From Bacteroidota bacterium (GTDB lineage Bacteria; Bacteroidota; Bacteroidia; Bacteroidales; JACABE01): a stretch of 24,000 nt of DNA. Location: contig JBAXLO010000008.1 of assembly GCA_037134755.1 (NCBI GenBank), forward strand, positions 14,011 to 38,010. Reading direction: 5' to 3'. Position 1 is the stretch's first letter, and each line of letters starts with the position of its first letter. This document shows positions 5,085-23,154 of the stretch, one piece after another. The position numbers and the translations under genes are program-made. The notes below the pieces were generated by a model that saw only the letters and a list, made by a program, of their open reading frames with translations, had not been told where the DNA came from and searched no databases.

Positions 5085-5092
5085 CTAATCAC

Positions 5093-8365: not shown

Positions 8366-8396
8366 ATTGCTTAACCTCTTTCGGCGTGGTAAATAG

Positions 8397-10046
8397 CTAC
8401 TTACTTATATCTTTCTTCCCCTTTAGGTTCTCAACTAACTCATTCAATTCTGCCTCCGATAATGAAAATCTCTTTGTCGGTTCAAATTCTACTGATTCCA
8501 TTGTATTTGTGTGCATAGCTCCTATTTGGTATAAACCCGCGTCGTTTATATCCATACTAAGCATTATTTGATCATTTGTGTAGTAAAGTGGCAGAAAAAA
8601 TGAAAATTGGCATATTTCTTTTTTCTCCACTTTTTCTTTTTCAATTATCTCATTAAAGCAGAGATCAATTCTGTCGTTTAATGCATGTCCAACTTTAATT
8701 GCAAATTCTTTCTTTTCCAAAAATGGATATTCCGTCCCCTTTGGTATAAAAACGCTTGATTTACCAGCATGATATATTTCAATATCCCTTGAAACAATGC
8801 TATTACACTTATTTTGAGCAAAGGGGGGTATAATAGTCCCATTTTTAAGTGCAGCTTGTATTGCTGCACCTTTTGCAACTGCCTTATTGAAATCATCTGA
8901 ATGTATAATTTTTTCTTTTGTGATGCCACCGATACTTGAAAATACATTAAATATTAATTCCCTTACATATGGAATTTGAGAACTACCTCCTATTAATATT
9001 ACTTGTGAGATAGGCAAGCGTTTTTTGCTAATTCCCTTTAAAACATCTGCAATCCTTGTTTTTATGCTTAGCTTGCTATCCCCCAATACTTCCTCTTCAA
9101 AATCTTCCCTAGTAACGATTATTGGTTTATAAATGCCTTCAAAAGATATTTTTACGCTTTTCTCAGTTGAGAGTTTGATTTTTGCTTGCTCAATATTTCT
9201 CTTAAGTCTAAATATATATTGCTTAACATCAATACTCACATCTTCAGAAAATTTTAATATTTTATGATCTAAATAATTTATATAATAATTTTCAAAAGCG
9301 ATTTTTACTTCTTGAATAAATTTATCATTTACATATTCATTGGCTATATTCTGGAGAACTAAATCAGTAAAAATAAAATCTATAATATTTCCTCCCAATT
9401 CAGGATCTCCACCAATTTCAAGAACTTCAGGTGTAATTGCGCCATTTGCATAACATACCTTTATTAATGATAGGTCTAACGTCCCCCCTCCGAAATCAAA
9501 CACAAGAATATTTTTATGCGCATCAGATGAGAACCATTCTATGCCCTTTTTTACATACTGATCAAAAAGGTGGTACATGATAGCAGCTGTTGGTTCTTCA
9601 ATTAAGCCTTCAATTCTCATCCCTGCTGCAATTCCTGCTTGCATTGTAGCGTCTTTCTGCGTTTGGTCAAAAAATGCTGGAACAGTTATTAAGGCAGATT
9701 TTATCTGATTATTGTGCAATTTATTGAAGTGCCTAAGAAGGTAAGCAGAAATCTCTTGAGGTGATTTGTTAATTATATTTCCGTTTATTATAATAGGTAT
9801 TTCAGTTGTTTTCCCAAGACGAATTTTAACAAGTTCAACAGTACTGTCGGGATAAATATATAATTTGTTTTCGGCAAGACTCCCAACTTTATAATTATTT
9901 TCGTCCTCGAAATACACTATTGACGGGAAGCTTTCATTGCCTTCATCATCATTGAGACATTTTACTTCGAAGCTCCCGTCAAGCTTTTCTTCTACTTTTG
10001 CAACAAGACAATTGGATGTTCCTAAATCAAGTCCGTAGCTTATCAT
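8397..10046 (-). CDS. atypical short Hsp70-family ATPase (HscC-like, 549 aa)
   Basis: Phosphate-1 motif YGLDLGTSNCLVA (10011..10028). ITVPAFFDQTQKDATMQAGIAAGMRIEGLIEEPTAAIMY. Phosphate-2 motif VFDFGGGTLDLSLIK. Adenosine motif ILIGGSSQIPYVRE. An SBD-beta-like stretch runs IPKGTEYPF...MDINDAGLYQIGA. The protein ends soon after, so the helical lid is short or absent. GGAGG SD at 10053..10057. Confidence 0.9.
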   Translation of the reverse strand: MISYGLDLGTSNCLVAKVEEKLDGSFEVKCLNDDEGNESFPSIVYFEDENNYKVGSLAENKLYIYPDSTVELVKIRLGKTTEIPIIINGNIINKSPQEISAYLLRHFNKLHNNQIKSALITVPAFFDQTQKDATMQAGIAAGMRIEGLIEEPTAAIMYHLFDQYVKKGIEWFSSDAHKNILVFDFGGGTLDLSLIKVCYANGAITPEVLEIGGDPELGGNIIDFIFTDLVLQNIANEYVNDKFIQEVKIAFENYYINYLDHKILKFSEDVSIDVKQYIFRLKRNIEQAKIKLSTEKSVKISFEGIYKPIIVTREDFEEEVLGDSKLSIKTRIADVLKGISKKRLPISQVILIGGSSQIPYVRELIFNVFSSIGGITKEKIIHSDDFNKAVAKGAAIQAALKNGTIIPPFAQNKCNSIVSRDIEIYHAGKSSVFIPKGTEYPFLEKKEFAIKVGHALNDRIDLCFNEIIEKEKVEKKEICQFSFFLPLYYTNDQIMLSMDINDAGLYQIGAMHTNTMESVEFEPTKRFSLSEAELNELVENLKGKKDISK

Positions 10047-10052
10047 AAGTAT

Positions 10053-10057
10053 CCTCC
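10053..10057 (-). promoter_or_regulatory. Shine-Dalgarno GGAGG for the Hsp70-like gene
   Basis: Plus-strand cctcc, with a 6-nt spacer to the ATG at 10046. Confidence 0.7.
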
Positions 10058-10060
10058 GGT

Positions 10061-10774
10061 CTAAAGTGATATTTGTTCTGGTTCCGGTTCTGGTTCTTTT
10101 TCAATTTGGGCTTCCATATTTTTAGATTTTTTATACTTTGTTGTCTTTTCTTTAATTATTACTTTATCCTTATTTTCAATATGTAATATTATTTTAGTAT
10201 TTGGCTTTATACCCTCTTCTGGCCATAATCCTAAGCCAGTAATTTCTTCAGTAATCTCAGAAATACTTGAAATTATGTTATTGATTGTATCAATCATAAC
10301 ACTTGTATCATCTCCGTTATTTATTTGCTCTCCTAAAGCGCTTGATGTATTGGCACTAGAAACTAGCCTATCTCTTACTATTTGTAGTTTCTTTCTAGTT
10401 TCATTTATAGTAGATTTCTTAATCTTTTCTTTCTCATTATTAGCATCGTCAATTAAGCCCTGTGCTCGACTGATTGATGATTTTAACTTTTCATTTTCTT
10501 CTATTAAAAGTCTATGTTCCAAATACCTCCTACCAATTGCGTCGAATTTAATATTTTCTTTTATCAATTCCAATGCTGTTTTTAAAGCACTATTAATTGA
10601 ATCACTCCTTGCAGATATTTTTTCTTTGTTTAAAACAGTTTCTAAATAGTTTGAGGTAGCATATTTTTCGTTTAATTCGTAGAGAAAAGTGAAAATTTCA
10701 TTCAGATACGAATTGCTTTCTCTTCCATCGCTTTGCTTGATAAATTCTTCCATTAATAAATCTTTAATATTCAT
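10061..10774 (-). CDS. hypothetical coiled-coil protein, 237 aa, acidic EPEPEPE tail
   Basis: ATG start with AGGAGGAA SD at 10783..10790. The long central stretch is rich in charged residues and looks heptad-like (IEENEKLKSSISRAQGLIDDANNEKEKIKKSTINETRKKLQIVRDRL). The C-terminal part looks beta-rich (KIILHIENKDKVIIKEK). No J-domain HPD motif. Confidence 0.65.
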   Translation of the reverse strand: MNIKDLLMEEFIKQSDGRESNSYLNEIFTFLYELNEKYATSNYLETVLNKEKISARSDSINSALKTALELIKENIKFDAIGRRYLEHRLLIEENEKLKSSISRAQGLIDDANNEKEKIKKSTINETRKKLQIVRDRLVSSANTSSALGEQINNGDDTSVMIDTINNIISSISEITEEITGLGLWPEEGIKPNTKIILHIENKDKVIIKEKTTKYKKSKNMEAQIEKEPEPEPEQISL

Positions 10775-10782
10775 AATTAATC

Positions 10783-10790
10783 TTCCTCCT
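10783..10790 (-). promoter_or_regulatory. Shine-Dalgarno AGGAGGAA for the 237-aa coiled-coil gene
   Basis: Plus-strand ttcctcct. There are 8 nt between it and the ATG at 10774. It overlaps the last base of the upstream stop codon. Confidence 0.7.
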
Positions 10791-11434
10791 TATAACCAAT
10801 GCATACCCGAAATCCAATAACGTGAACTATTTCCCTGAAATTTATGCCTATATAAAATAAAATATAGCTCTTTATCTTTTCTATTTAGTAAATCTAAATA
10901 TTTTTTTCTTTTATTTTCAAACTCACTATTTTTTATTATCCAATTCCAATAATGAACCCATCGATAATCTTTATTTAGAAATTCTTTTGCTTCTTTAAGA
11001 CAAGTTATATTCGCTTTTATTCGATACTTATTTATTTGCCCACCTTTTGATTCAGTTTTTTTATCTATTGAGATATCTTCAACTTCATTAACTTTTACAA
11101 TTGCATATCTTTCTTTAGTATTTACAAAAAACTTATCTCCATTTAGCACTTTAGCTTCAAGTATCTTTTTTAGTAAATCTATACTATTATTAGCAAGCTT
11201 TACTTTGAAAGCCTCATACATTTCGTTTCCATATTTTGATTCTTTGATCCTGATTTCATCTACAAATGTTGTGAACCCAATATCCCACATAACTTCTCCA
11301 TTAGTAGAAACTATTTGATCTCTCACTAAATCAAAAGATAGAATGTTTTTACTTTTAACATCATAGGCAACGACAGAGAACTCATCTGTGTTAGGGAATG
11401 TTTCAGTAATGGCAAGGGTTATCAGTTCATACAA
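10790..11434 (-). CDS. hypothetical protein, 214 aa, Trp-rich C-terminus
   Basis: The ORF begins at a TTG (plus-strand caa at 11432..11434) 2 nt after the upstream TAA. GGGAG lies about 10 nt upstream. There is no in-frame ATG near the start, so the start is uncertain. The C-terminus reads YRWVHYWNWIIKN...RYWISGMHWL. Confidence 0.6.
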   Translation of the reverse strand: MYELITLAITETFPNTDEFSVVAYDVKSKNILSFDLVRDQIVSTNGEVMWDIGFTTFVDEIRIKESKYGNEMYEAFKVKLANNSIDLLKKILEAKVLNGDKFFVNTKERYAIVKVNEVEDISIDKKTESKGGQINKYRIKANITCLKEAKEFLNKDYRWVHYWNWIIKNSEFENKRKKYLDLLNRKDKELYFILYRHKFQGNSSRYWISGMHWL

Positions 11435-11436
11435 AA

Positions 11437-14211
11437 TTATTCATCTCCCATCATACTTTCACTTACTTCGTAGTAGTTTCTAAGGCATACATCTGTAAAG
11501 TTACAATTTTCGCAAACTTTTTTATGAGGCAATTCAATTTTTTTCTGATAAAGTTTGCTCGACTCCATATATTTATTGATACGCATATTAATATTATCTA
11601 AGCTGAAATTCATTGTGTTTTGCTTTGTTTTGTCATCTTTCCATTGTGCAATTAGAAAGTTTAACTTTCTTCTTCTGTAAATCATACCCGTACCATTATT
11701 ACCAATAATCTGCTTATAGGTGTTCTTTTCTAAGTCGTATAAAACTGCTTGCCCCCAGAACGGAAAAAGTTTTCTAATATTTTCATATTCAATTGAAAGC
11801 TTATTTTTTAAATCTTTTTCCTTCAGTCCATACTTTTTTTCCATTAAAATAAACATAAAATTAGATACAAAATATTTTATATGGTATTCATTTGAATATT
11901 CGATTGGTGATTTAATCAGATAATTTATCATGAATTTAAATGGGCATATTGCGAATGTTTCTTTTTCCTCACTTGATAACTTTTCTGAGTTTAAAGCGCT
12001 TATAACTTTTTCTTTTGATTCCTCAGCAATAAATGACGGCTGTCCGCTTTTGTCAAATAATTTTTGACCTAGATTTAGAATTTTAAGAAGATAATAAAGC
12101 GTCTGTTCTCTGCCATTTTCTTCTTGAATAAAACTTAATTGAATATTCTTATTTGAGAAAAATGTTCCATAAAATAGTGAGAATTTGAGAAAATTTCTAT
12201 GTTCTAATATGCATTTTGTTATTACAGGGACTGCTGATTCCATGTCCGTATATCCAACAAACATTTTTTCTGATAGTGGCCAAGTCAAGATATCGCTGTT
12301 CTGAGAATTCATATTCAAGTTTGACAATAATGCAAAATGATGATATTTAGCGGTTGTCGAAGTTCCTAATAAGACAGAACCATCAATTTGTTCAAAATTT
12401 CTGACAATCCAGTTTGATGAATCTTTTTTGTTTGAACCCGAAAGATAGAAGGCTATTGCATCTTTTACATCCTCAATATTCCCTTTGACCGCACCCTCGT
12501 GAAATAACTTCATTTTTATATTTAGTTCTTCTATTAATTTACTTTCTGTGTCGCTAATAATTACATTCGATGTAGCTTTGTTTGATATTATTTCCATCAA
12601 AATACCAAAATGCTTTGCAAAGTCTACTGTTTTATTTGAATCCTTAAACAATTCATTTGAAATCCCTTCAATAAATTCGATGAATTTTTTAAATTCATCG
12701 ATCTCATCCAAAGTAATATTAAAAAATGAAATCATTTTTAAATCATTATATAAGTTGTTAGTATTTATTATTTCATTAGCAGTTTTTAGCTCTTTGATTC
12801 TCTCGTAATATTTGATTAATAATTTCACGTCTGTGAAGTATGTAGAAATTTTTTTGTAGATTGAGTATATGTTGTGTGTTTCTGATTTATATAGACCCGT
12901 AGCAGCACACTCAAGTAAATATTTGTCTTCTATTTTCAAACTCGCAACTTCAAAATCCCACATTGAATAGATACCAAGAATGAACTGTCCAATTGGGTAA
13001 GAAAGGAAATGCCTGCTCCCAAATTGATCTGGGTAATACATCTTAAGCAATGCGTTACTTGATTCTCCAGTAACAGCATAATATTGCGTCTTCATTTGGC
13101 TAATTGATTCACCTGCTTCATCGAAAGTTATAGCAACTTCGTTGTCTGTGAATTCAGTCAGATTTCTAAATAATATAACTTCTTGATCATCTAGTTTGGG
13201 TGGGTCTTTGCCTTCAATAATGGCTGCAATTGACTGGCCAATAAGTTGTCCAGATTGAATGTCAATGGTACTTTCATATTCAAATTTTGCATCGCACCAC
13301 CCATAAACCTCTTTCCATGTGCTATAAGTAAATGGCAAATTTTTGCAGTAATTAATTAAGAAAATTACTTCAACTCCAAATTTTTCAAGTTGTTTAAAAA
13401 AATGAAACATAATTGGAGTTATTTTATGTACCCCATGTACAATTATTTTATTGAAAGCTTCAAAATTCTGACCTTGCAAAAGTTCATATAAATAATTCGC
13501 GCGGTCAAGGTCCCTTTTATATGTAGTCTTTTTTCTACCTGTCAAACTTAAGTATCCTTCTTGTCCATGCTTAGACTGGCTTAATTTATTTAAATAATCA
13601 ATGATGATTCTCAAACATTCTAAACCATCATTTCTATCATTCAAATTTGATTTTGCTCCTGATTTTTCAATATAATTCCTTCGGTTATCGCCAAAATACC
13701 ATTTAATTTCTTCATTTAAAGTTGAAATAATTGATGAGATATAATCTTCTTTATTCAATAATGCTAGTTTCTTGTACCCCTCATAATACTCACTCGTTAT
13801 TACTTCCTCATATATAATAATTAAGTAGTTCTGCTCTACTGACAAATCAGCTTTATTGAATAAATTGCTATCAGCATTCATTAATATTAATAGTTTTATT
13901 GATTCTACAATATCAGAAATATTAAACCTAAAAGCCTTTTTTATTTCTGGTTCCTTCATTCCTCTTATTATGTTTGAGATTGTAAGAAAAAGCTGCATAT
14001 CGCTCTGCGGATTATTTATGAAGTCTTTATAAAACAAGTTGATTAGCGTTGTTATAGCCCCCATATACCCAAATGATATTCTTCCATATTGAGTTTCTAA
14101 ACCTTGCATAAGGGTATCTGATGCACAAAAGTGAGGGTGATCTGTGACCACTTTCCAAAGCTCCTCGTTTTCATTAATTTTACATGGATTTGGATAAGTA
14201 AGTATCCTCAT
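11437..14211 (-). CDS. large protein with C-terminal AddB/Cas4-type four-cysteine (iron-staple) PD-(D/E)XK-like domain, 924 aa
   Basis: The first Cys sits in FAICPFKFMINYL (C756, 11944..11946). CENCNFTDVC supplies C900-x2-C903-x5-C909 (11485..11514). This matches the C...CxxCx5C pattern of AddB/Cas4/RecB-family nucleases. No Walker A is seen in the roughly 750-aa N-terminal part. The ATGA overlap with the upstream helicase gene indicates translational coupling. Confidence 0.6.
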   Translation of the reverse strand: MRILTYPNPCKINENEELWKVVTDHPHFCASDTLMQGLETQYGRISFGYMGAITTLINLFYKDFINNPQSDMQLFLTISNIIRGMKEPEIKKAFRFNISDIVESIKLLILMNADSNLFNKADLSVEQNYLIIIYEEVITSEYYEGYKKLALLNKEDYISSIISTLNEEIKWYFGDNRRNYIEKSGAKSNLNDRNDGLECLRIIIDYLNKLSQSKHGQEGYLSLTGRKKTTYKRDLDRANYLYELLQGQNFEAFNKIIVHGVHKITPIMFHFFKQLEKFGVEVIFLINYCKNLPFTYSTWKEVYGWCDAKFEYESTIDIQSGQLIGQSIAAIIEGKDPPKLDDQEVILFRNLTEFTDNEVAITFDEAGESISQMKTQYYAVTGESSNALLKMYYPDQFGSRHFLSYPIGQFILGIYSMWDFEVASLKIEDKYLLECAATGLYKSETHNIYSIYKKISTYFTDVKLLIKYYERIKELKTANEIINTNNLYNDLKMISFFNITLDEIDEFKKFIEFIEGISNELFKDSNKTVDFAKHFGILMEIISNKATSNVIISDTESKLIEELNIKMKLFHEGAVKGNIEDVKDAIAFYLSGSNKKDSSNWIVRNFEQIDGSVLLGTSTTAKYHHFALLSNLNMNSQNSDILTWPLSEKMFVGYTDMESAVPVITKCILEHRNFLKFSLFYGTFFSNKNIQLSFIQEENGREQTLYYLLKILNLGQKLFDKSGQPSFIAEESKEKVISALNSEKLSSEEKETFAICPFKFMINYLIKSPIEYSNEYHIKYFVSNFMFILMEKKYGLKEKDLKNKLSIEYENIRKLFPFWGQAVLYDLEKNTYKQIIGNNGTGMIYRRRKLNFLIAQWKDDKTKQNTMNFSLDNINMRINKYMESSKLYQKKIELPHKKVCENCNFTDVCLRNYYEVSESMMGDE

Positions 14212-17200
14212 TCTTGCACCCCACTAATCATTTTACTCCAATTATACTTAGTCTTTTTCTTTGAGACTTCATAAGAAATATAAATTATTCTCTTGATTGC
14301 TCTTGTAATTGCTACATATAAAATTCTTGTCTCTTCTCTTCTTCTATCTATAATCTCGTCCTTTTGATAGTTTTCATAATGATTATTCTCGCAAATTATT
14401 TTGTAGTCTCTGCCTGTGATTCTGTATCCAACTTCATTTTTTGAATATATTAAATCAACCTCTCCTTTTGCTCTGGCACTTGAAATATCAAAGTTGCAAT
14501 AAGGAAGTAATATCGTATCAAATTCTAGCCCTTTCGCTTTATGAACAGTTGTGCATATTGCTTTTGCTTTAGATTTTTCAATATCATATGATTCTCTTGC
14601 TTCTTCTTCTTGTTTTGTTAATATCATTATTTCCAAGTAATCAGAAAGCTTATTTATCGTAATGTAATCGGTATTTGAAGCTATTATTAATTTTTCAAAT
14701 AATTGGTCAAGATTTCTTATATAATATGATTCCAATCTTTCTATCTCTTCTAAACCATCTGCCTGCGATTTAATTGCAAATGTTTCCCAAGGCTTAGTAT
14801 CGTTTACTATATCCCTTATTACTTTTAATGCCGGCTCTTCCGTCAATCTAGAAATATATTTATTCCATTTGTTTAAATTTTTAGGCAAATTATTATAGAA
14901 TAATTCTACAATTTCTTCTTCATTTAACCCTACTAACGAATTCTTTTCCAGTTCATCGATTATATAAGATGTTGTATATAGGTTATAGAGATATTTTGGC
15001 CATCTATTATGTTTAAGTGCAAGTACTAATTTAAACAAATCAATAGTTGGATCAATTCTAAATAGGTCTCCTCCTATTTCAGTCTCAATATTAATTTTGG
15101 CTTTTTTACATATTTCCTTAATATTGTTAACTTGCCAATTGTAGCGAACTAAAATTGCAATTTTATCATTTTCATTTTCAAGACTTGGTATATACTGCCT
15201 CAATGTATCGACCAACTTTTTCTCGAATTGGGGATCGCTAAACACTTTAATATTATATAATTCAGTAGAATCACATAATAACTTTGTTCCTATTAATATA
15301 TCTTCCTCTGAGTAATCTATATCTCCATTATTATTCCAAGCCCTGAAAACTTTATTCATTTGTTTCATAAGGTTACTATCAGTTCTGTAATTTTTATTAA
15401 GTGAAACTGTTGTAAATTGATTTTCATTGTCAAGCGTATCGAAAGCTTTGACCTGGGCTCCCCTGAATCTGTAAATACATTGTTTTATATCACCAACTAC
15501 GAAGAATTTATAATTAAATTGCTTTCTAAAATCTTTCATAAGTTGGATTTGAACATCATCTGTATCTTGAAATTCATCGACAAAAAGAAAATCAATATTA
15601 TCTTTCTGGAACGTAGGGTTTTCTTGGAGTTTAGTTAATAATATTCTCAGTTTTTTTATTAAGTTGCCAAGACTAACGGAGTTATTTGTATCACAATATT
15701 CATTCATTTCAACTTGAGTTGATTTAAGTTCTTCAATTAATTTATTAAAAATTTTATTATTTGGATTTCCAAAGTCAACATCTTTATCAGATATTTCAAC
15801 ATTTTTATCATCTAACTTCTCTAATAAATGCAAGAGCCTCTCTTGCAGATCATACATAGATATTTCTATTTTATCCTCTATTTCTTTATTTTTTTCTACA
15901 AAGTCATTTATATGCTTATGCAGGATCTCTTTCCTTTTATATTTGCCTGTTGTAATGCTAAATTCTCTTCCTAAGCCTAAAACATAGCCGTATTTCTTGA
16001 TAATATTTTTAGATAAAGCATGAATTGTTGAAATGTTCATATCTTCAATAGCTTCAATAAAATCTAAGAAGTCATTATTTTTAGTCAGTAAATAAATATT
16101 CAAAAAACTATCAGCAAGTTTTTCTTTCATCGCTTGGGCTGATTCATTTGTAAAAGTGATCATAATTATAGCTCTTTTTAAATCGTATGTGTCATAACCC
16201 TTTTCCCATATCAAATATTGAATCCTAGAAATTATAACGTAGGTCTTTCCAGTGCCTGCCCCAGCCTTCACGATGATGTCCTCAAGTTTCGCATGCTCAA
16301 TAGAATACTGCCCTAAATTAAAGCTTGAGCTTTCATTTAGGCTAACAAGTTGATTTGTATATTTTCCTGATTCGCTTCCATTTATTATTTCAAATGATTC
16401 TGCGTTAACTTCCGTTAAGCTTAGATCGAAGTTAAAAGTGCTATTGCCGATAAATTTAAAATCTTTTCTGTCATCTAGTCCCATGCTTTTGATGCAACCT
16501 TCTATTTCCCCTCTAATTTTTATGAGAACATTTAGCGAAGTCACATATACATAAAATTTGGTTCCCGAATTCCATTCATGAATCATTTTTTCAAGATATG
16601 TTTTGTCAATTTCTTCATTATTTATAAAGATCAGTTTAGAGTAGTATCGCCTTACTAGCTTAATTTTATCTTTCTCTGCTTTTGAGTCGGGTTTCCCTTG
16701 CTTGTTTTCCGAACGAAATTCGGGGCTTACTAAATTCCCTACAGTATTTAATATTGGTTTGTCCAAACCATTTTTAATTAATCCAGGAATATTAATTTGT
16801 TCATATGCATCTTCAAATATTTTCTCGATTTTATCCTTCAAAGTTTTAGCGTTTTCTAGGTCTTCCATTGTAATCGTCATAATTGGGCCAGATATTTTGT
16901 TGAGATGTTTTGATTCATATTCTTTCTTATTAAGGAAAGGATAACAAACGCTACATGGCACATAAACTGAGTTAATGCCTGCATTATGAAGTATTTCAAT
17001 TAATTGAAATCTATATCTATTTGCTTGAGCTAGTGGAGATGGTATTGGTGGGTAATTCTTAAGATTAATTCTAGAATTATCTGGCACTTCGATAATATTC
17101 TTTGCTAGAAAACCCTTTATCTCTATAATTAATGCCCCAAGTTTTGGCACCAGTAGAATAATATCCACCTGCTTCTGCCCTAAGTAATAATTGTGAAAAC

Positions 17201-17294
17201 TTACATAATCTTCTGGTAATAGTTCTTTAAATTTTCTCCAGACGTAGTTTTCGCCTTCTGAATTTCCATCAAAGTCATTTATAGGTAATATCAT
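14208..17294 (-). CDS. NERD domain - UvrD/Rep-like SF1 helicase fusion, 1028 aa
   Basis: N-terminal NERD-like region YVWRKFKELLPEDYVSFHNYYLGQKQVDIILLVPKLGALIIEIKG contains D44...E58-x-K60 (17115..17165). Helicase motif I is VKAGAGTGKTYVI (16242..16262). Motif II is FLFVDEFQDTD. Motif III is VVGDIKQCIYRFRGA. Motif IV is NKNYRT. C-terminal motifs are TVHKAKGLEFDTILLP and LYVAITRAIKRI. Confidence 0.85.
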   Translation of the reverse strand: MILPINDFDGNSEGENYVWRKFKELLPEDYVSFHNYYLGQKQVDIILLVPKLGALIIEIKGFLAKNIIEVPDNSRINLKNYPPIPSPLAQANRYRFQLIEILHNAGINSVYVPCSVCYPFLNKKEYESKHLNKISGPIMTITMEDLENAKTLKDKIEKIFEDAYEQINIPGLIKNGLDKPILNTVGNLVSPEFRSENKQGKPDSKAEKDKIKLVRRYYSKLIFINNEEIDKTYLEKMIHEWNSGTKFYVYVTSLNVLIKIRGEIEGCIKSMGLDDRKDFKFIGNSTFNFDLSLTEVNAESFEIINGSESGKYTNQLVSLNESSSFNLGQYSIEHAKLEDIIVKAGAGTGKTYVIISRIQYLIWEKGYDTYDLKRAIIMITFTNESAQAMKEKLADSFLNIYLLTKNNDFLDFIEAIEDMNISTIHALSKNIIKKYGYVLGLGREFSITTGKYKRKEILHKHINDFVEKNKEIEDKIEISMYDLQERLLHLLEKLDDKNVEISDKDVDFGNPNNKIFNKLIEELKSTQVEMNEYCDTNNSVSLGNLIKKLRILLTKLQENPTFQKDNIDFLFVDEFQDTDDVQIQLMKDFRKQFNYKFFVVGDIKQCIYRFRGAQVKAFDTLDNENQFTTVSLNKNYRTDSNLMKQMNKVFRAWNNNGDIDYSEEDILIGTKLLCDSTELYNIKVFSDPQFEKKLVDTLRQYIPSLENENDKIAILVRYNWQVNNIKEICKKAKINIETEIGGDLFRIDPTIDLFKLVLALKHNRWPKYLYNLYTTSYIIDELEKNSLVGLNEEEIVELFYNNLPKNLNKWNKYISRLTEEPALKVIRDIVNDTKPWETFAIKSQADGLEEIERLESYYIRNLDQLFEKLIIASNTDYITINKLSDYLEIMILTKQEEEARESYDIEKSKAKAICTTVHKAKGLEFDTILLPYCNFDISSARAKGEVDLIYSKNEVGYRITGRDYKIICENNHYENYQKDEIIDRRREETRILYVAITRAIKRIIYISYEVSKKKTKYNWSKMISGVQE

Positions 17295-19372
17295 GAGCGT
17301 CCTCCATCTTCCAGATATGTTACTATTAGCTCATCTCTTGCTCTTGTTGACGCAACATATTTTTCACATTCAATTAGTTTGTCATAATATTCACCAATTT
17401 CTGGAGAATCACTTTCGATGCTTCTATAATTTTTTATATTGTTATAGTCAAATATTATAACGACCTCAAACTCAAGCCCTTTTACTCCCATAATAGTACA
17501 AATACACACTCCCTTATCTTTCCCCGGAATGATATCATCAATTAGCAAAGTTGATACTATCTCAGATAAAATTAGAACTGCTTTTATTTCATTGCTCTCT
17601 TTAATTGTAGGGCAAATAATGCAAATTTGATTTGGTGCTCTTCCAGTTTTTATTAGATCTTGAACCTTTGATGCTATAAATTTATACTGGCTTGCTTCAG
17701 TGGTAAAGCCCTCAACTAGGGGATCAGCGCCACTCACGATTGATTTATATTCTTTAATATGGCCATTGACCATCTCTGATTGTATGAATTGATATCTAGC
17801 ATAATCGTTTATTTGTTTAGTTGTTCTATAATTTATTGATAAATATTGCGTTCTTCCAACTATATTAATTTCTATTTTATTTTTCCATGTCCCAAGGTTA
17901 AATATCCTTTGATTCATATCAGAAAGTATAAATATATTATTTTCTTTGGTTTTTACACACTTGCATAACGCCTTAAGTTTGATTGGTTCTAAATCCTGGG
18001 CCTCATCGATAATAATTGAATCATATTCCGCGTGTATTGAGCCCTCAATTAGTCCACTATTCATTTTATGAGCTCGATCTACAAAGGTTGTAATACCTCG
18101 CAACCTTTTTTCGTTTAATAATACTTCGAAGAACTTCCAAACAATTATACGTTTTTTTTCGTTAAGAGGCATTCCCGTTCCAGTTCGATCAGCTAGAAGG
18201 TATTCGCTCTCTGTTGTTATATTATATTTTTCAATAACCTCGTTATATTCAAATTGGTAAAACCCTTTTGTTCCCTTAGGTTTAAGTTGCTCATAAATCG
18301 TTGTAATTAACTTTTGCATACCTTGTGTATCGACATTTTGGATATGCCCATAAGCGTTGTTTAATGTAGAAAGTATAAAGCTATCAATTCCTACAACATC
18401 TATATTGTTCTTAATTCCCTTTATACGAATTAATTCCTCAACCTTCTCATTAATACTTTTGGCTAACTTTTTACTAAAAGTGCAAATTAAAATTTTCTTT
18501 CCGTCTTCAGACTTGTAAACATTTTGTGATAGGTAAATTGCTCTATGTATACCCACTATTGTTTTACCTGTTCCTGGGCCGCCTTCGATGAGTGCGGGGC
18601 CATTGAAATTCTTCTTAACAATCTCTTCTTGGCTTGGGTGAAGGAATAAAGTCCATTTTTCGAACGAATCATTGTCAGTCAAAATCTGTAATTCCTCTAA
18701 GGAATCAACTAAATAAAACCTTCTCTTGCTATCTTTATGATTTATTGAATTTTGAGTATCTTGATATTTATCATCAACTAACTCATTATAAATGGTTTCA
18801 TAGCTTTTAATACCAGACGCTAAATCTAGTAAAGCTTCTTGAATTTCTGAGGGAAAGATTGTAACGTAATCTAGATATTTATCCTCATTGGAAATGTTAA
18901 TTAAATTCTCTGCATGAATTTCGGCAATCCCAAGTTTTATTAAATTTTTAGCCTTAATGTTATTTGCTTTTAATAAAGACTTCTCTTCAATCATTTCATA
19001 TGGCTCATTTTGTTTAAGTTGATCTTCTTTATTATTCATAAGATTTTCATCATATATATATTCTGCCCCGAACTTTGTCTTATTTAAAGACTTACCCTCG
19101 CACCAATCATATGCTTGATCATGATGATCAACATATAAAATAGTGAAAATATCGCCCTGGGGTACAAATATCATTCTAATATCATCATTTACCCTTGCAC
19201 TTCTAAATTTCGGATCACACTTGACTCTATCAATACTATGGACTTGTAGCGATGCGCTTTTATGATTTTCAGATAATAAATTAATTGTATTTAAGGTAAG
19301 CTTTCTTGACTGTGCATCTAGTTTGAACACACTACTTAAGTAAGACTCTGTAATTGCAATATTCTTATCCAT
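17291..19372 (-). CDS. UvrD-like SF1 helicase with a distinct ~95-aa N-terminal domain, 693 aa
   Basis: Motif I is LIEGGPGTGKTIVGIHRA (18560..18580). ILICTFSKKLA. Motif II is IIIDEAQDLEP. SDMNQRIF. INYRTTKQI. TIMGVKGLEFEVVIIFD. YVASTRARDELIV. GAGGTG SD at 19377..19382. Confidence 0.85.
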   Translation of the reverse strand: MDKNIAITESYLSSVFKLDAQSRKLTLNTINLLSENHKSASLQVHSIDRVKCDPKFRSARVNDDIRMIFVPQGDIFTILYVDHHDQAYDWCEGKSLNKTKFGAEYIYDENLMNNKEDQLKQNEPYEMIEEKSLLKANNIKAKNLIKLGIAEIHAENLINISNEDKYLDYVTIFPSEIQEALLDLASGIKSYETIYNELVDDKYQDTQNSINHKDSKRRFYLVDSLEELQILTDNDSFEKWTLFLHPSQEEIVKKNFNGPALIEGGPGTGKTIVGIHRAIYLSQNVYKSEDGKKILICTFSKKLAKSINEKVEELIRIKGIKNNIDVVGIDSFILSTLNNAYGHIQNVDTQGMQKLITTIYEQLKPKGTKGFYQFEYNEVIEKYNITTESEYLLADRTGTGMPLNEKKRIIVWKFFEVLLNEKRLRGITTFVDRAHKMNSGLIEGSIHAEYDSIIIDEAQDLEPIKLKALCKCVKTKENNIFILSDMNQRIFNLGTWKNKIEINIVGRTQYLSINYRTTKQINDYARYQFIQSEMVNGHIKEYKSIVSGADPLVEGFTTEASQYKFIASKVQDLIKTGRAPNQICIICPTIKESNEIKAVLILSEIVSTLLIDDIIPGKDKGVCICTIMGVKGLEFEVVIIFDYNNIKNYRSIESDSPEIGEYYDKLIECEKYVASTRARDELIVTYLEDGGRS

Positions 19373-19376
19373 TTAG

Positions 19377-19382
19377 CACCTC
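19377..19382 (-). promoter_or_regulatory. Shine-Dalgarno GAGGTG for the first UvrD-like helicase gene
   Basis: Plus-strand cacctc inside the 16-nt dndA-helicase gap, 4-6 nt before the ATG at 19372. Confidence 0.6.
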
Positions 19383-19388
19383 GGCATT

Positions 19389-20582
19389 TTAGATATTATT
19401 AATAATAAAATTCAATGCATCCATTATTTCAGACTTAGATGTTTTAGTTCCATAAGATATTCTCAGAACATTTCCTGTCATATTCTCAAGACCTATTGCC
19501 TTCAAGACGTGAGATGGTTGGCCTGCTGTACATGCAGAGCCAGATGAAAGGCAGTATTTATCGCTTATTTTCTTTATAAATCTTTCATTATTAAAATCTT
19601 CATTTTTAATTATTAAGCTTAATATCCCTGGGAGTTTATTGTCAGGGTCTCCCAATATTTCAATGCCTTCTATTTTTTTTAAAAGTGAATTTATCTCTCT
19701 ATCAATTTCTAAATAATGCTGCTGATTTTTAGCCTTATCCCTAATAACTATCTCCGCAGCCTTACCAAAACCAACAATATTATGAACGGCTAAAGTTCCA
19801 GCCCTAAGACCATTTTCTTGTTCTCCTCCGTGAATTAGTGAGGATATTGGAGGTAAACCAAAATCATCTTCCCGAATATATGCTGCTCCTACTCCTTTAG
19901 GTCCGTTTAATTTATGTGCAGAGAAAGAAAGAAAATCTACTTTAGTCTTCTCGACATCTACATCTATCTTCGCTATAACTTGAGTTGCATCAGAATGAAT
20001 GGGAACCATCTTGCTGTGAGATATTTCAGCAAGTTTTAAAATGTCATTAATGGTTCCTATTTCATTATTTCCCCATATTAATGAGACAAGAATTGTCGAA
20101 TTCTTTATATTGTCCAACAAATTTTCAGGTTCAACTTGTGCATATTTGTTTACTTCTAAGAAAGTTACTTCATACCCTCTATCTACCTTTAAAATTTTAT
20201 CAGTTATAGAGAAAGAAGAATCTTTATTTGAATATAATTCTCCATTTAAGAATTTGCATGTGTTTAAAGTTGCCTTATGCTCAACCATTGATGTTATAAT
20301 ATGATTTCCTTTTTTAGTATAAAGCTTCTGGTAGTCAGCTATACCTTTGATGATCATGTTCGTACTTTCAGTTGCGCCTGAGGTGAAAACAATGCTTTGT
20401 GGCTGCGTATTGATTAGTTTAGCCACCCAGAGTCGACTTTCTTCAACTGCTTCTTTTGCTGAAGCAGCTAGTTTATAATACTTACTTGAGGGGTTTCCAT
20501 ATTCTAAAGTTAGATAAGGAATCATTGCCTCATAAACTTCTTTAGCGATTGGCGTTGTAGCGCAATAATCCAAATATGTCAT
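19389..20582 (-). CDS. dndA: cysteine desulfurase (NifS/IscS class V aminotransferase), DndA by context
   Basis: TSGATESTN. PLP-lysine motif SFSAHKLNGPKGVGAAYI (K224). Active-site cysteine loop LSSGSACTAG (C351). ATGA overlap with dndE. Confidence 0.88.
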   Translation of the reverse strand: MTYLDYCATTPIAKEVYEAMIPYLTLEYGNPSSKYYKLAASAKEAVEESRLWVAKLINTQPQSIVFTSGATESTNMIIKGIADYQKLYTKKGNHIITSMVEHKATLNTCKFLNGELYSNKDSSFSITDKILKVDRGYEVTFLEVNKYAQVEPENLLDNIKNSTILVSLIWGNNEIGTINDILKLAEISHSKMVPIHSDATQVIAKIDVDVEKTKVDFLSFSAHKLNGPKGVGAAYIREDDFGLPPISSLIHGGEQENGLRAGTLAVHNIVGFGKAAEIVIRDKAKNQQHYLEIDREINSLLKKIEGIEILGDPDNKLPGILSLIIKNEDFNNERFIKKISDKYCLSSGSACTAGQPSHVLKAIGLENMTGNVLRISYGTKTSKSEIMDALNFIINNI

Positions 20583-20959
20583 ACGGTGTCACCAACTCCT
20601 AAGTTTTGCATTACATATCTGTCCAAAGATCCTGCATGATTATACATATCTAATAATAACTTAGAGCCTCTATCAATATGCGCCTTAACATAATGCGGAA
20701 AATAATCGTCTTCAGGCAAGTTTTTGCCTTCCACTTGTTCTATCATTACTTTAAAATAAGCATCGTAATCACCAGTTATTGTTTGCCTATTCAAGTCTAA
20801 ACCCTCTGAATCAGATTTAAACTTTTCTACTGAAGTCCCTTGTCTTAAAGACCAACAGATAGCATGTTTAACCAAGGTATAAGGCCTTAAGTGCATTCGG
20901 CTCTCAAGCTCTTTAAAAATTGTTTCTGTTTCCTTTGAAGTTTTTAATCTAAAAATCAT
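20579..20959 (-). CDS. dndE: DNA sulfur modification protein DndE
   Basis: A 126-aa protein between dndD and the desulfurase, overlapping both by 4 nt (ATGA). The N-terminal FRLKTSKETETIFKELESRMHLRPYTLVKHAICWSL resembles the DndE family as I remember it. Size and position are typical. Confidence 0.8.
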   Translation of the reverse strand: MIFRLKTSKETETIFKELESRMHLRPYTLVKHAICWSLRQGTSVEKFKSDSEGLDLNRQTITGDYDAYFKVMIEQVEGKNLPEDDYFPHYVKAHIDRGSKLLLDMYNHAGSLDRYVMQNLGVGDTV

Positions 20960-23154
20960 AAGTTATCACCCCTAAAAAAGTAACCTGTATTTACAATTGT
21001 CTTGCTAATTGTCTCGTCGTATTCCAACAAGTACTCTTGCCCAATAAATGGCTTTATTACTTTATAGTAAGTTTTATTTATTTCTTCATCCGTTGAAAAT
21101 ATGATTACTTGGTCACTTATTGATGGGAAAAACTCTCTTGAAATTTGTTCTCTATGTTCAGTATCAATTCTCGCATATGGTGTATCAATAATGAATGGTA
21201 AATCTTTCCCCGATGCTTTAATAATTGCCCAATAAAGACACAGTATGAATATTTGCTTTTCACCTTTTGAAAGTTGGTTAAGCTCAATTTTCTTAAAAAT
21301 TGAAATAGAAATATCATCAAAAATCCCAACTTGATCCTGTGACTTTTTTAGAATATTTTTTAATTGGGAGAACGAATTGATATTAAAATGATTTAAGAGA
21401 ATTTCTACGCCTTTTCCACCAATTCTTTTTGACAATTCATCCAATCCTATATTTTGAATTAATCTGCTCAATTCTTTGTATTGATAACTTTGGATTTTAT
21501 ACAAATTTATATTAAACTTGTTGTCTATTTCGACTAAGTCTATGAGATTCTCTTTTCTCATTATTTTTTTTAACATATTAAGAGATAGCTCTTCAATTTG
21601 CTTATATTTTGTATCTAGCATTTTATCAATAATTTGGCTCATTACAAAACTAGTCTTTTGAGTCAGTTCATATATGTTCTTATCTTTTGCATTAGCTTTG
21701 ATTTTCTCCATAACTAGAGTTTTATTAGTATTTAATTCATCATAGCGTGATTTTATATCTTGTTCTTCGGCAACTATTAAATCAAGTTTAGCTTTTGTTT
21801 CATATTCTGATTCAGTTAATTCGGTGAACTGTTTTGAAAACGAATTAAAGTCAATCTCAGATAAAGTATCTCTGAGAATTTTATTTAATCTTGAAGTTTC
21901 TTGTGCGAGGCTAGTTTTGGCATTTATCATTAAGATCATTTTTTTAGCATCAAATTTATTAATATCTTCAAGAACCGCACTAACTTTACTATTCTGCTCT
22001 TGCGATAAATCGTGAATAAGTTCTAACTCTTCAGTGTCTTGATCGTTATCTGGTCTCCAGTCTGCTATAAGTTTTTTTGCCAAGTCTTTCGCAAAATTAT
22101 CCACATCAATGGAGCTAATTTTATTAGTATTTAAAGATTCAATTACTGAATTCTTGAATTCGTCTGATTCTAATTTATTTTTTAATATATTATATTGTTG
22201 CACTTCAGTTTCTAAGGAAATTTGTTTCTTAACGTTTGAAGCAATATCCTTTGTTATTATAAAAGGCATTAAACCCTCAAGGTAGTTCTTTATATTAATG
22301 CTAATCTCATCCTTCGCGCGTTCCTTATCCTTAAGTTGGTTATTTAATTCCTCTCGCTCATTCTCACTCATTCCACCTGATTCCTTGAACCTTTTATCAA
22401 GTATCTCTTTATCTGAATATATTTCAGCTAATTTTTCATTGTAACTCGTTTCCTTTTTCTCAAGATCAGCAATTTGTTCATTAACTTGATCAATGCTAGC
22501 CTTTATAAGATCATATTCCTGAGTTAATAAAATAATCTCTTCTGAGTTTTCGCTGCTGCTAATATAGTTTTCAGTAAATTTCTTTATCAATTCAAAAGTA
22601 TCTAAAGAGCATAATGTTAAAAATGCATTTTTTAGATATGAATTATAATTATTTGAAGCAAAAAATTTTGCAACTTCCTCACCATCAAAGAAAAAATAAT
22701 CAAATAGATTTGGAGGTAGTTCATTGAATAAATAATTATTAAAGAAAACAATGTCATCACTATCTAACTGCTTATCTTTATAAAATATTTTAAGATTTTC
22801 TGTTATCCTTTGATTATTAAAATTCCACTCTCTTCTAACAATGTAGTTTTTTCTTTCCCTTTCATCAACAATTTCAAAATCTACCTCTATATATGCACTT
22901 ACTTCTTTGTTTGAATAAGCATCATCGTTTATTAGCTCTTTTATTTTTGATAAGTAGAATGCACTATTAGTCTGATAGTTAAAGCATAGTGGTCCATAAA
23001 GTGCTAGTTTTATCGCTGTAAAAAGAGAAGTCTTGCCAGTGCCGTTTTGACCTCCGATTAACACTATTTTCTTATCCTGACCTAAGGTAAAATCAAATTC
23101 AAATTCACCCAAATATGAGCTAAAATTACATAATTTTATCTTATTGATTCTCAT
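20956..23154 (-). CDS. dndD: DNA sulfur modification protein DndD (SMC/ABC-like ATPase)
   Basis: N-terminal MRINKIKLCNFSSYLGEFEFDF...LIGGQNGTGKTSLFTAIKLALYG (Walker A 23029..23055). Long central coiled-coil. ABC signature-like LSKGEKQIFILCLYWAI. Walker B PFIIDTPYARID. Overlaps dndC by 14 nt. Confidence 0.9.
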   Translation of the reverse strand: MRINKIKLCNFSSYLGEFEFDFTLGQDKKIVLIGGQNGTGKTSLFTAIKLALYGPLCFNYQTNSAFYLSKIKELINDDAYSNKEVSAYIEVDFEIVDERERKNYIVRREWNFNNQRITENLKIFYKDKQLDSDDIVFFNNYLFNELPPNLFDYFFFDGEEVAKFFASNNYNSYLKNAFLTLCSLDTFELIKKFTENYISSSENSEEIILLTQEYDLIKASIDQVNEQIADLEKKETSYNEKLAEIYSDKEILDKRFKESGGMSENEREELNNQLKDKERAKDEISINIKNYLEGLMPFIITKDIASNVKKQISLETEVQQYNILKNKLESDEFKNSVIESLNTNKISSIDVDNFAKDLAKKLIADWRPDNDQDTEELELIHDLSQEQNSKVSAVLEDINKFDAKKMILMINAKTSLAQETSRLNKILRDTLSEIDFNSFSKQFTELTESEYETKAKLDLIVAEEQDIKSRYDELNTNKTLVMEKIKANAKDKNIYELTQKTSFVMSQIIDKMLDTKYKQIEELSLNMLKKIMRKENLIDLVEIDNKFNINLYKIQSYQYKELSRLIQNIGLDELSKRIGGKGVEILLNHFNINSFSQLKNILKKSQDQVGIFDDISISIFKKIELNQLSKGEKQIFILCLYWAIIKASGKDLPFIIDTPYARIDTEHREQISREFFPSISDQVIIFSTDEEINKTYYKVIKPFIGQEYLLEYDETISKTIVNTGYFFRGDNL

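Follow-up and report, generated by a model that had tools for sequence, protein, structure and literature searches.

Organization of the locus

To examine the genes that lie next to the dnd phosphorothioation genes in this Bacteroidota genome, we analysed a stretch of 24,000 nucleotides (contig JBAXLO010000008.1, positions 14,011 to 38,010; hereafter the window). The whole window was found to be one tightly spaced, co-directional array on the minus strand, reading from dndC through dndA to three genes (genes 1 to 3) and then to a series of Dpd-like genes. A scan for promoters and terminators was at chance level and uninformative, with no terminator signal above chance. The dndA gene lies 16 nt upstream of gene 1, and both ATGA stop/start overlaps that link genes 1, 2 and 3 were read directly from the sequence.

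Features of the window, with window positions, strand and supporting evidence (L numbers denote individual surveyed loci that carry relatives of the genes)
Position	Strand	Feature	Evidence
23141..24000	-	dndC (3′ part; runs off the window)	NCBIfam DNA_S_dndC E 1.7e-58
20956..23154	-	dndD	NCBIfam DNA_S_dndD E 1.4e-110, above the curated cutoff
20579..20959	-	dndE	Pfam DndE E 5.6e-24
19389..20582	-	dndA cysteine desulfurase	Pfam Aminotran_5 E 7e-68; NCBIfam DndA E 1.3e-108
17291..19372	-	Gene 1, accessory SF1 helicase, 693 aa: RelE/HigB-like N-terminal domain plus UvrD core (ArmD-like architecture)	Pfam UvrD-helicase and UvrD_C (aa 245-688); AlphaFold pLDDT 86.9 and a UvrD fold
19043..19372	-	RelE/HigB-like domain of gene 1 (aa 1-110)	Pfam HigB-like_toxin in 12 of 17 family members (best E 1.9e-4), ParE_like in 5; top PDB profile hits YoeB and RelE3, both weak (E 0.27-0.8); predicted topology beta-alpha-alpha-beta-beta-beta; H45, R60, R66, H84 and Y88 invariant
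14208..17294	-	Gene 2, NERD-UvrD helicase-nuclease, 1028 aa: AddA-like motor and nuclease subunit	Pfam NERD (E 2.5e-11), UvrD-helicase (E 1.8e-45) and UvrD_C; best NCBIfam hit addA (E 4.9e-40, below cutoff); best PDB sequence hit AddA 3u44_A (E 2.7e-20)
16941..17261	-	NERD PD-(D/E)xK nuclease domain of gene 2 (aa 12-118)	D44, E58, K60, Q90 and Y94 invariant in 75 of 75 homologues
11437..14211	-	Gene 3, AddB-like subunit, 924 aa: predicted inactivated SF1 helicase fold plus C-terminal 4-Cys domain	AlphaFold pLDDT 84.2; top 5 Foldseek PDB hits AddB chain B (E 3e-11 to 3e-9)
11440..11979	-	C-terminal iron-staple-like domain of gene 3 (aa 745-924), C756 … C900-x2-C903-x5-C909	All four Cys invariant in 37 of 37 sequences; sub-threshold PDDEXK_1 hit at the first Cys (E 0.027)
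10790..11434	-	214-aa protein of unknown function, first of the variable genes between AddB-like and DpdE-like	No family hits; homologues of 185-220 aa at the same position in clade-A loci
10061..10774	-	237-aa protein of unknown function	No family hits; present only in the closest relatives
8397..10046	-	HSP70/actin-like ATPase (nucleotide-binding domain only), 549 aa	Pfam HSP70 E 3.5e-54, profile positions 3-245 of 599; conserved in L004, L007, L015 and L090-092
5093..8365	-	DpdE/BrxHII-like SNF2 helicase	NCBIfam DpdE E 4.8e-102 (342 bits, cutoff 500); PADLOC DpdE E 2.7e-77
2592..5084	-	DpdF-like DEAD/RecQ-type helicase	NCBIfam DpdF E 2.8e-151 (506 bits, cutoff 550); PADLOC DpdF E 3.3e-125
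1795..2589	-	DpdG-like protein	NCBIfam DpdG E 4.6e-8, below cutoff; weak precomputed Pfam DpdG hit
1..1789	-	DpdH/BrxC-like P-loop ATPase (5′ part; 1025 aa on the full contig)	NCBIfam DpdH E 4.3e-65, below cutoff; PADLOC DpdH E 5.5e-38

On the source contig the DpdH-like gene is followed by a 227-aa protein at the DpdI position, a methyltransferase and an HNH protein. Pfam, PADLOC and NCBIfam scans of the 214-aa, the 237-aa and the DpdI-position proteins found nothing usable.

Domains and conserved residues of the three proteins

The initial annotation had described genes 1 to 3 as a translationally coupled trio of two UvrD-like helicases and a four-cysteine protein, and this description of the sequence was confirmed in every point: the three minus-strand genes, the two overlaps, the helicase motifs, the NERD domain and the C…CxxCx5C motif are all present. 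In gene 1, the Walker A (G264-K270), DExQD (456-460) and motifs V and VI were invariant in 37 homologues. The N-terminus of gene 1 carried no annotation in the initial domain scan, and a RelE/HigB-like domain was recognized there from the family, the predicted topology and profile hits. In gene 2, a full UvrD core follows the NERD domain and the protein ends with UvrD_C at aa 1008 of 1028, and D44, E58, K60 and all SF1 motifs were invariant or nearly so in 75 homologues.

Gene 3 gave no credible hit in Pfam, PADLOC or NCBIfam. Its N-terminus reads MRILTYPNPCKI, with no GxxxxGK[ST], and thus has no Walker A site such as that of B. subtilis AddB; Y6 and P9 are conserved instead, and their invariance in 37 homologues supports the long start of the gene. 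A sequence-profile search of the 924-aa family against PDB gave only a chance hit, and only the fold search revealed AddB. Comparison of its predicted structure with Foldseek, which had been suggested as a test of the AddAB reading, gave AddB chain B as all of the top five hits over about 1016 aligned columns, nearly the full length of the protein, although the TM-score was moderate (0.48). The four cysteines were accompanied by no invariant D…(D/E)xK triad between C756 and C900, and this region was predicted to be mostly helical; D826 is conserved at 89% and sits in a predicted helix, and some members carry acidic residues at positions 842/843. The C-terminal domain is therefore probably not a second nuclease, and NERD is probably the only nuclease of the pair. 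Binding of an Fe-S cluster was not assayed.

Distribution and genomic context of the gene pair

To determine which of these genes form a conserved unit, we surveyed the loci of their relatives. Genes 2 and 3 were adjacent or overlapping in 77 of 80 independent genomic loci, which is far beyond chance. On the other hand, gene 1 was present in only 4-5 of 80 genome loci, always directly upstream of NERD-UvrD where present, and is a clade-specific accessory; the trio is thus not the functional unit. The conserved array was found to be NERD-UvrD, AddB-like, 0-3 variable genes and then DpdE/F/G/H/I-like genes, which extends beyond the three genes first delimited. A DpdE-like gene followed directly in 59 of 74 loci, starting within about 160 nt of the AddB-like stop codon, the order DpdE, F, G, H was conserved in about 70 of 80 genome loci, and a DpdI-position gene followed in the metagenome loci. 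The pair is fused in an operon with DpdE/F/G/H/I-like genes in about 70 of 80 loci. Gene order was fixed across very divergent sequences of 23-50% identity. Clustering of unassigned flanking ORFs in the 80 genome loci found no further widely conserved gene, only integrases, WYL/HTH regulators and relaxases. Some members add a PIN domain or a neighbouring Mrr nuclease.

The co-occurrence with dnd genes was then examined. The dnd genes lay upstream in 16 of 59 loci and downstream in 19 of 33. Ten of the 12 loci without downstream dnd had close relatives with upstream dnd, and one more case was resolved by the locus L172. Taken together, dnd modification genes lie directly upstream or downstream in about 30 of 31 resolvable loci, sometimes with dndFGH or pbeABCD as well, and the pair was never seen away from a phosphorothioate-system gene in any inspected locus. 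DndFGH co-occurs in L009, L010, L015, L088 and L089. However, the cassette was also found without Dpd-like genes, in Paenibacillus (L004) and next to PbeA/PbeC (L171), and may therefore work on its own. The DpdEFGHI-like core in turn occurs with other helicase-nuclease partners, such as DrmA/DrmB plus a NERD helicase in L087, which fits a swappable effector slot.

Two outcomes had been named in advance as fatal to the defence reading, namely that the genes would prove to be a housekeeping repair operon of most related genomes, or that they would match a named defence system. Neither was observed. The family is rare and sporadic, being found in 130 of 185,579 species and in 826 representative clusters out of 1.84 billion, and a housekeeping AddAB was rejected on this rarity and on context. 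In PADLOC the pair gave only generic GajB, "NERD+UvrD" and RTasHel hits and matched no named system. Literature searches and paper reads found no description of a dnd-linked AddAB-like/Dpd-like module, although most subscription-journal papers were not covered, so that a prior description cannot be excluded, and the module is apparently undescribed.

Proposed function of the module

The initial interpretation, that the trio is an AddAB-like helicase-nuclease acting as a phosphorothioate-dependent or phosphorothioate-excluded machine, was partly supported by these data: the resemblance to AddA and AddB holds for genes 2 and 3, the domain order does differ from AddAB as claimed, and linkage to phosphorothioation is very strong, whereas the claims of a three-gene unit and of a nuclease-like domain in the third protein needed change. 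The suggested stoichiometric complex is an inference from gene coupling and analogy, as neither a multimer prediction nor biochemistry was carried out, and heterodimer formation, binding to DNA ends and a response to Chi were not measured.

We consider, with moderate confidence, that genes 2 and 3 encode an AddAB/RecBC-like two-subunit helicase-nuclease, in which the 1028-aa subunit would supply the SF1A motor and the only conserved nuclease, and the 924-aa subunit would be an AddB-like dead helicase whose C-terminal domain keeps the four-cysteine "iron staple" but has lost the catalytic residues. In this view the pair is the DNA-degrading effector of a multi-helicase restriction module linked to dnd, together with the DpdE- to DpdI-like proteins, which are relatives of the sensing and translocating parts of the Dpd and BREX systems. 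The dnd-installed marks would identify host DNA, and DNA without the mark would be engaged by the Dpd-like ATPases and helicases and handed to the AddAB-like enzyme, or that enzyme would load on free ends, and would then unwind and cut the DNA processively. Gene 1 would be an accessory analogous to ArmD of ARMADA type II. Of this account, the domain identities, fold matches, residue conservation, gene order and linkage to dnd come directly from the analysis, while complex formation, the nuclease-dead status of the AddB-like protein (which rests on missing conservation and a predicted helical domain), the division of labour and the direction of phosphorothioate sensing are our inferences. Whether phosphorothioate protects against the enzyme or activates it is not known; PbeABCD needs phosphorothioate and does not degrade DNA.

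Other explanations were considered to be less likely. The cassette (gene 1 where present, NERD-UvrD, AddB-like and the ~200-aa protein) might be a self-sufficient, Gabija/Nhi-like system attacking phage DNA ends or replication intermediates, which merely rides in the same islands as dnd, pbe, dndFGH and Dpd-like genes without depending on them. The varying partners in L004 and L171, the generic PADLOC hits and the integrases, relaxases and HTH regulators in the flanks, typical of islands, agree with this; but the close spacing to DpdE, the fixed gene order and a dnd linkage much tighter than loose island co-location would give speak against it, and we regard it as unlikely, though as the strongest of the alternatives. 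It is still less likely that the pair is an end-processing enzyme repairing breaks in the host's own DNA, caused by DndFGH nicking or by oxidative cleavage at phosphorothioate sites. Its closest solved relatives are indeed the repair enzymes AddA and AddB and it co-occurs with DndFGH in some loci, yet its nuclease is a NERD domain rather than the RecB-type domain of repair enzymes, the AddB-like nuclease site is not conserved, PIN or Mrr nucleases are added in some members, the operon is fused with Dpd/BREX-type defence helicases and the distribution is rare and patchy.

Equally doubtful is a Pbe/BREX-like exclusion system that blocks phage replication without degrading DNA, with the pair acting mainly as a translocase or clamp and NERD as a backup suicide effector. 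PbeABCD does not cleave viral DNA, BREX analyses treat NERD as a backup nuclease, and the DpdE and DpdH relatives are BrxHII- and BrxC-like; however, the strict conservation of the NERD catalytic triad and all helicase motifs in 75 of 75 sequences points to a primary catalytic role. A more speculative possibility, which we hold to be improbable but which the data do not rule out, is that a new class of AddAB-like enzymes has been recruited for immunity, in which phosphorothioate linkages play the role that Chi plays for AddAB: the dead-helicase, Fe-S-bearing AddB-like subunit would read the sulfur-marked backbone on the translocating strand and switch off or stall the NERD nuclease, so that host DNA is spared and unmarked phage DNA is degraded from its ends, with the Dpd-like ATPases acting as loaders or licensers.

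Many dnd modification clusters lack the known restriction partners DndFGH or PbeABCD, so what reads the mark in those organisms is an open question. The present module is a concrete candidate reader and effector for them, and many of the loci found here come from gut and rumen Bacillota. It also shows that the DpdE-I/BREX-like core is not tied to 7-deazaguanine but can be paired with a different DNA mark and with interchangeable helicase-nuclease effectors, namely DpdJ/K, DrmAB plus a NERD helicase, or this AddAB-like pair, and it would be an example of an AddAB/RecBC-type machine dedicated to defence rather than repair.

Comparison with known systems

In order to place the module further, it was compared with its closest known systems. 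In AddAB of Bacillus subtilis (PDB 3u4q, 4cei), as here, one subunit is a UvrD-type SF1A helicase that also carries a nuclease, the other has a helicase-like fold with no helicase motifs and a C-terminal domain pinned by C…CxxCx5C, and the genes are adjacent and coupled. In contrast, the motor subunit here carries no C-terminal RecB-type nuclease, the AddB-like subunit lacks Walker A and a conserved nuclease triad, the score of gene 2 against NCBIfam addA_Gpos is far below the equivalog cutoff (137 against 708 bits), and the context is defence and phosphorothioation rather than housekeeping repair. The logic also matches RecBCD, with one active helicase-nuclease, one catalytically dead helicase- and nuclease-like partner (RecC) and, in the clade of the window, a second helicase gene; but RecC has no Fe-S cluster, RecD is an SF1B helicase whereas gene 1 is a UvrD-like SF1A helicase with a RelE-like domain, and RecB was only a weak sequence hit (E 8.5e-9).

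Homologues of DpdE, DpdF, DpdG and DpdH, plus a DpdI-position gene, occur in the canonical order of the Dpd system (7-deazaguanine modification; restriction genes dpdD-K), yet they score 343/500, 506/550, 33/80 and 221/450 bits against the NCBIfam equivalog cutoffs, so that this comparison does not settle whether they count as the Dpd proteins proper. DpdA (TGT-like), DpdB and DpdC were not annotated in the window or in the gene tables of the looked-up loci, and the linked modification genes are dndBCDEA instead; the surveys included no DpdA/B/C queries, so their absence from the surveyed loci was not tested directly. Likewise, no gene in the window has a PLDc or YprA/MZB (DUF1998) Pfam domain and none of the genes downstream of DpdH on the contig corresponds to DpdJ (YprA-family helicase) or DpdK (PLD nuclease), without a specific query for these two having been run, and the NERD-UvrD/AddB-like pair takes the helicase-nuclease role.

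Among phosphorothioate systems, the window has dndC, D, E and A but no DndF/G/H or PbeB/C/D hits, and none of the trio or the Dpd-like proteins is homologous to these; PbeA shares only the generic helicase C-terminal domain, and identity with PbeABCD was rejected on its domain description. The comparison with Gabija GajB, Nhi and the PADLOC "C3a187 NERD+UvrD" candidates showed UvrD-type helicases used in defence and existing NERD plus helicase fusions, but the hits are generic helicase-core matches, there is no GajA (OLD-family ATPase-Toprim nuclease) in the window, and none of these systems has an AddB-like partner. Finally, gene 1 shares with ArmD of ARMADA type II (bioRxiv 10.1101/2025.09.15.676423) the fusion of a RelE-like domain to a GajB-like UvrD helicase, although direct homology between the two was not tested. 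ARMADA uses a YprA helicase (ArmC) and a PglX-like methylase (ArmB), neither of which was found in the window, rather than an AddAB-like pair and dnd; as in ARMADA, however, gene 1 sits in an operon with a BrxHII/DpdE-like helicase and a large helicase-nuclease.

Gene organization of the array

To examine the three-gene cassette in its context, we first read the gene order of the window, which was found to be a single co-directional minus-strand gene array. In the order of transcription it comprised dndC (partial), dndD, dndE and dndA, followed by a UvrD-like helicase gene (gene 1), a NERD-UvrD gene (gene 2), a gene without any family hit (gene 3), two small genes of unknown function, an HSP70-like ATPase gene and the genes of DpdE-, DpdF-, DpdG- and DpdH-like proteins. 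The intergenic gaps were 2-31 nt or were replaced by overlaps, and no terminator or promoter signal exceeded chance. The initial annotation had reported two ATGA overlaps joining the three genes, and both were read directly from the sequence. Its residue-level statements were also found to hold: Walker A and DExQD were present in both helicases, NERD carried D44, E58 and K60, and the 924-aa protein had no Walker A and carried C756…C900-x2-C903-x5-C909. The observation that had prompted this analysis is confirmed.

Coordinates of the features in the window and in related loci
Sequence	Coordinates	Strand	Feature
Window	17291-19372	minus	Gene 1, UvrD-like helicase, 693 aa
Window	14208-17294	minus	Gene 2, NERD-UvrD protein, 1028 aa
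Window	11437-14211	minus	Gene 3, protein without family hit, AddB-like by predicted fold, 924 aa
Window	10790-11434	minus	Small unknown protein, 214 aa
Window	10061-10774	minus	Small unknown protein, 237 aa
Window	8397-10046	minus	HSP70/actin-like ATPase, nucleotide-binding domain only
Window	1795-2589	minus	DpdG-like protein
L001 (source contig, just beyond window position 1)	14626-16268		HNH protein, preceded by a small SAM methyltransferase
L004 (Paenibacillus roseipurpureus)	15887-16882		HNH protein
L087 (Selenomonas ruminantium metagenome contig)	3359-21698		DpdEFGHI-like core with DrmA, DrmB and a NERD helicase
L087	9195-10004		DpdG-like protein
L088	14982-23075		dndF/G/H genes beside the AddAB-like/Dpd-like module
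L089	22471-23135		dndF/G/H genes beside the AddAB-like/Dpd-like module
L171	10001-22070		Trio cassette in an array with Pbe genes
L172	1-22064		Trio cassette in an array with Pbe genes

The NERD-UvrD and AddB-like proteins

Family and fold searches had been named beforehand as a test of the AddAB analogy, and these were carried out for genes 2 and 3. The 924-aa protein gave no credible hit in Pfam, PADLOC or NCBIfam, its only Pfam line being a sub-threshold match to an unrelated family, and a profile search against PDB sequences also found nothing. We built an AlphaFold model from 37 homologues, which was confident (pLDDT 84.2), and when this model was compared with the PDB by Foldseek, the five best matches were all AddB, chain B of the B. 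subtilis AddAB complex (E 3e-11 to 3e-9, about 1000 aligned columns, TM about 0.48), followed by UvrD, PcrA, AdnA and RecB. Independently, the best solved sequence relative of the 1028-aa NERD-UvrD protein was AddA from the same complex (E 2.7e-20), which ranked ahead of PcrA, UvrD, Rep, GajB and RecB; the best NCBIfam hit was also addA, although far below the equivalog cutoff.

In 75 homologues of the NERD-UvrD protein, the NERD residues D44, E58, K60, Q90 and Y94 and all SF1 motifs were invariant or nearly so. In 37 homologues of the AddB-like protein, the four cysteines were invariant, but no D…(D/E)xK triad was conserved between them and the region was predicted to be largely helical. Besides these four C-terminal cysteines, C435 was invariant and C29 nearly invariant in the family, and their role is unknown. 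Given also the absence of a Walker A, we read the pair as AddAB/RecBC-like in architecture, with one active nuclease (NERD) and a partner which keeps the iron staple but has probably lost catalysis; whereas the conservation and the fold matches were observed, this loss of catalysis is our inference. A subclade of the AddB-like protein (proteins P0110-P0112; loci L026, L028, L047, L051, L058, L065 and L066) was ~1400 aa long and carried a C-terminal PIN_4 domain after the CxxCx5C motif and a long acidic coiled linker, which may be a replacement nuclease for the degenerate one.

The N-terminal domain of gene 1

Gene 1 was found to encode a complete UvrD-type core, and several lines pointed to a RelE/ParE-superfamily domain at its N-terminus (aa 1-110). 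The predicted topology of this region was beta-alpha-alpha-beta-beta-beta, Pfam HigB-like_toxin matched 12 of 17 family members (best E 1.9e-4) and ParE_like matched 5, and YoeB and RelE3 were among the top PDB profile hits, although these were weak. Several homologues are named 'RelE' by JGI, and H45, R60, R66, H84 and Y88 were invariant. The same architecture has been described for ArmD of ARMADA type II.

Conservation of the unit in related loci

It had been stated in advance that a housekeeping recombination or repair operon present in most related genomes regardless of dnd would count against the proposal. A scan of one genome per species found 130 relatives of the AddB-like protein in 185,579 species, most of them Bacillota with isolated Bacteroidota, Thermotogota and Actinomycetota, and a full HMM search found 826 representative clusters among 1.84 billion proteins, indicating that the family is rare and patchy and not housekeeping. 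The taxonomic labels of the window's own proteins were in disagreement; the identical helicase protein (gene 1; record P0241) is labelled by NCBI as from a Bacteroidota MAG, while the AddB-like and DpdH-like proteins of the same sequence (records P0001 and P0121) are labelled Eubacteriales MAG, which is either a binning conflict or a recently transferred island.

Across 80 genome loci, the order NERD-UvrD, AddB-like, DpdE, DpdF, DpdG, DpdH was conserved in about 70. The pair was adjacent in 77 of 80 loci, and DpdE followed directly in 59 of 74. On the other hand, gene 1 appeared in only 4-5 of these loci, and wherever it occurred it lay directly upstream of NERD-UvrD. The clade of the window inserts a ~200-aa protein plus one or two further genes between AddB-like and DpdE, these being the 237-aa protein with HSP70-like, a 293-aa protein, or a ~380-aa protein, while other loci insert an Mrr nuclease or nothing. 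The cassette of the window, with its HSP70/actin-like ATPase and two unannotatable small proteins, is clade-specific, and in other relatives it is replaced by a ~195-aa plus ~293-aa pair, a ~380-aa protein, or an Mrr nuclease.

A metagenome scan anchored on DpdH further showed a DpdI-position gene after DpdH, and also that a minority of DpdEFGHI-like cores lack the pair, as in locus L100, where dndDEA is directly followed by DpdE-I. The Selenomonas locus L087, which was found by looking up a DpdH homologue, instead carries DrmA, DrmB and a 605-aa NERD helicase after DpdI, with a C5 methylase and Vsr upstream; this is a DISARM/Dpd hybrid without dnd and without the AddAB-like pair.

Linkage to phosphorothioation genes

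We then determined the position of dnd genes relative to the module. They lay directly upstream of NERD-UvrD in 16 of 59 genome loci with enough upstream sequence, and dndB/C/D/(E)/A, often followed by an HNH gene, lay directly downstream of DpdI in 19 of 33 metagenome loci carrying the pair. The two positions were complementary: ten of the 12 loci without downstream dnd had close relatives (DpdE 50-99% identical) with upstream dnd, and locus L005, which has no upstream dnd, had a 98%-identical counterpart with downstream dnd. One more case was resolved by L172, in which the order was pbeABCD-like, dndBCDEA, trio, 185-aa gene, 384-aa gene and DpdE. About 30 of 31 resolvable loci are thus dnd-linked, a count that is partly inferred by matching relatives.

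Known phosphorothioate-associated restriction genes were also found beside the module. dndF/G/H genes lay directly next to it in L009, L010 and L015 (upstream of NERD-UvrD) and in L088 and L089, so that the module co-occurs with DndFGH rather than simply replacing it. In L171 the order was dndA, trio, 196-aa gene, PbeA, a PbeB-size ORF and PbeC, and with the L172 arrangement this shows three phosphorothioate-associated modules stacked in one array. In P. roseipurpureus (L004), the trio, two small genes, HSP70-like and HNH lie beside dndBCD with no Dpd-like genes.

Proposed mechanism and comparison with described systems

The initial annotation had proposed that the three genes form an AddAB-like effector linked to phosphorothioation, and this interpretation is supported only in part: the AddAB analogy holds for two of the three genes and the link to phosphorothioation is strong, but the unit is larger than the trio and gene 1 is optional. 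In the best-supported reading, dnd would mark self DNA, the DpdE-I-like helicases and ATPases, which are relatives of BrxHII and BrxC and of Dpd restriction proteins, would discriminate or load, and the NERD-UvrD/AddB-like enzyme would unwind and cut unmarked DNA, with gene 1 as an accessory. Our data did not distinguish whether phosphorothioate protects DNA or licenses the enzyme; PbeABCD needs phosphorothioate and does not cleave DNA. Rival readings are that the genes form an autonomous Gabija/Nhi-like cassette, an AddAB analogue for self-repair, or a non-degradative Pbe/BREX-like exclusion machine.

The pair is read as working like AddAB but differs from it in the position of the nuclease, the lack of the AddB Walker A and of the AddB nuclease motif, and the equivalog scores. 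The neighbours are Dpd-like but do not constitute a Dpd system; no DpdA/B/C or DpdJ/K was found where annotation was available and all scores were below the equivalog cutoffs. A profile-level match to an already named defence system had likewise been set beforehand as an outcome against the proposal, and PADLOC (2023) was found to have no model for the AddB-like protein and to give only generic helicase hits for the others. Comparative-genomics papers on Dnd, BREX and YprA/Dpd-like systems, and papers on gut phosphorothioate systems, do not describe this module, although the literature that could be searched was incomplete. We regard it as phosphorothioate-based, Dpd/BREX-like restriction, which differs from the described forms in its AddAB-like effector.

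Two further features of the neighbouring genes were observed. DpdG-like proteins of the window and of L087 gave a faint MksE (kleisin-like) Pfam hit, which hints that DpdG and DpdH/I may form an Mks/SMC-like ATPase complex. In addition, an HNH protein of 330-400 aa recurred after dndA, DpdI or HSP70-like on the source contig, in L004 and in many of the L09x-L16x loci, and it may be a further nuclease of the system or a sulfur-binding-domain/HNH-type enzyme.
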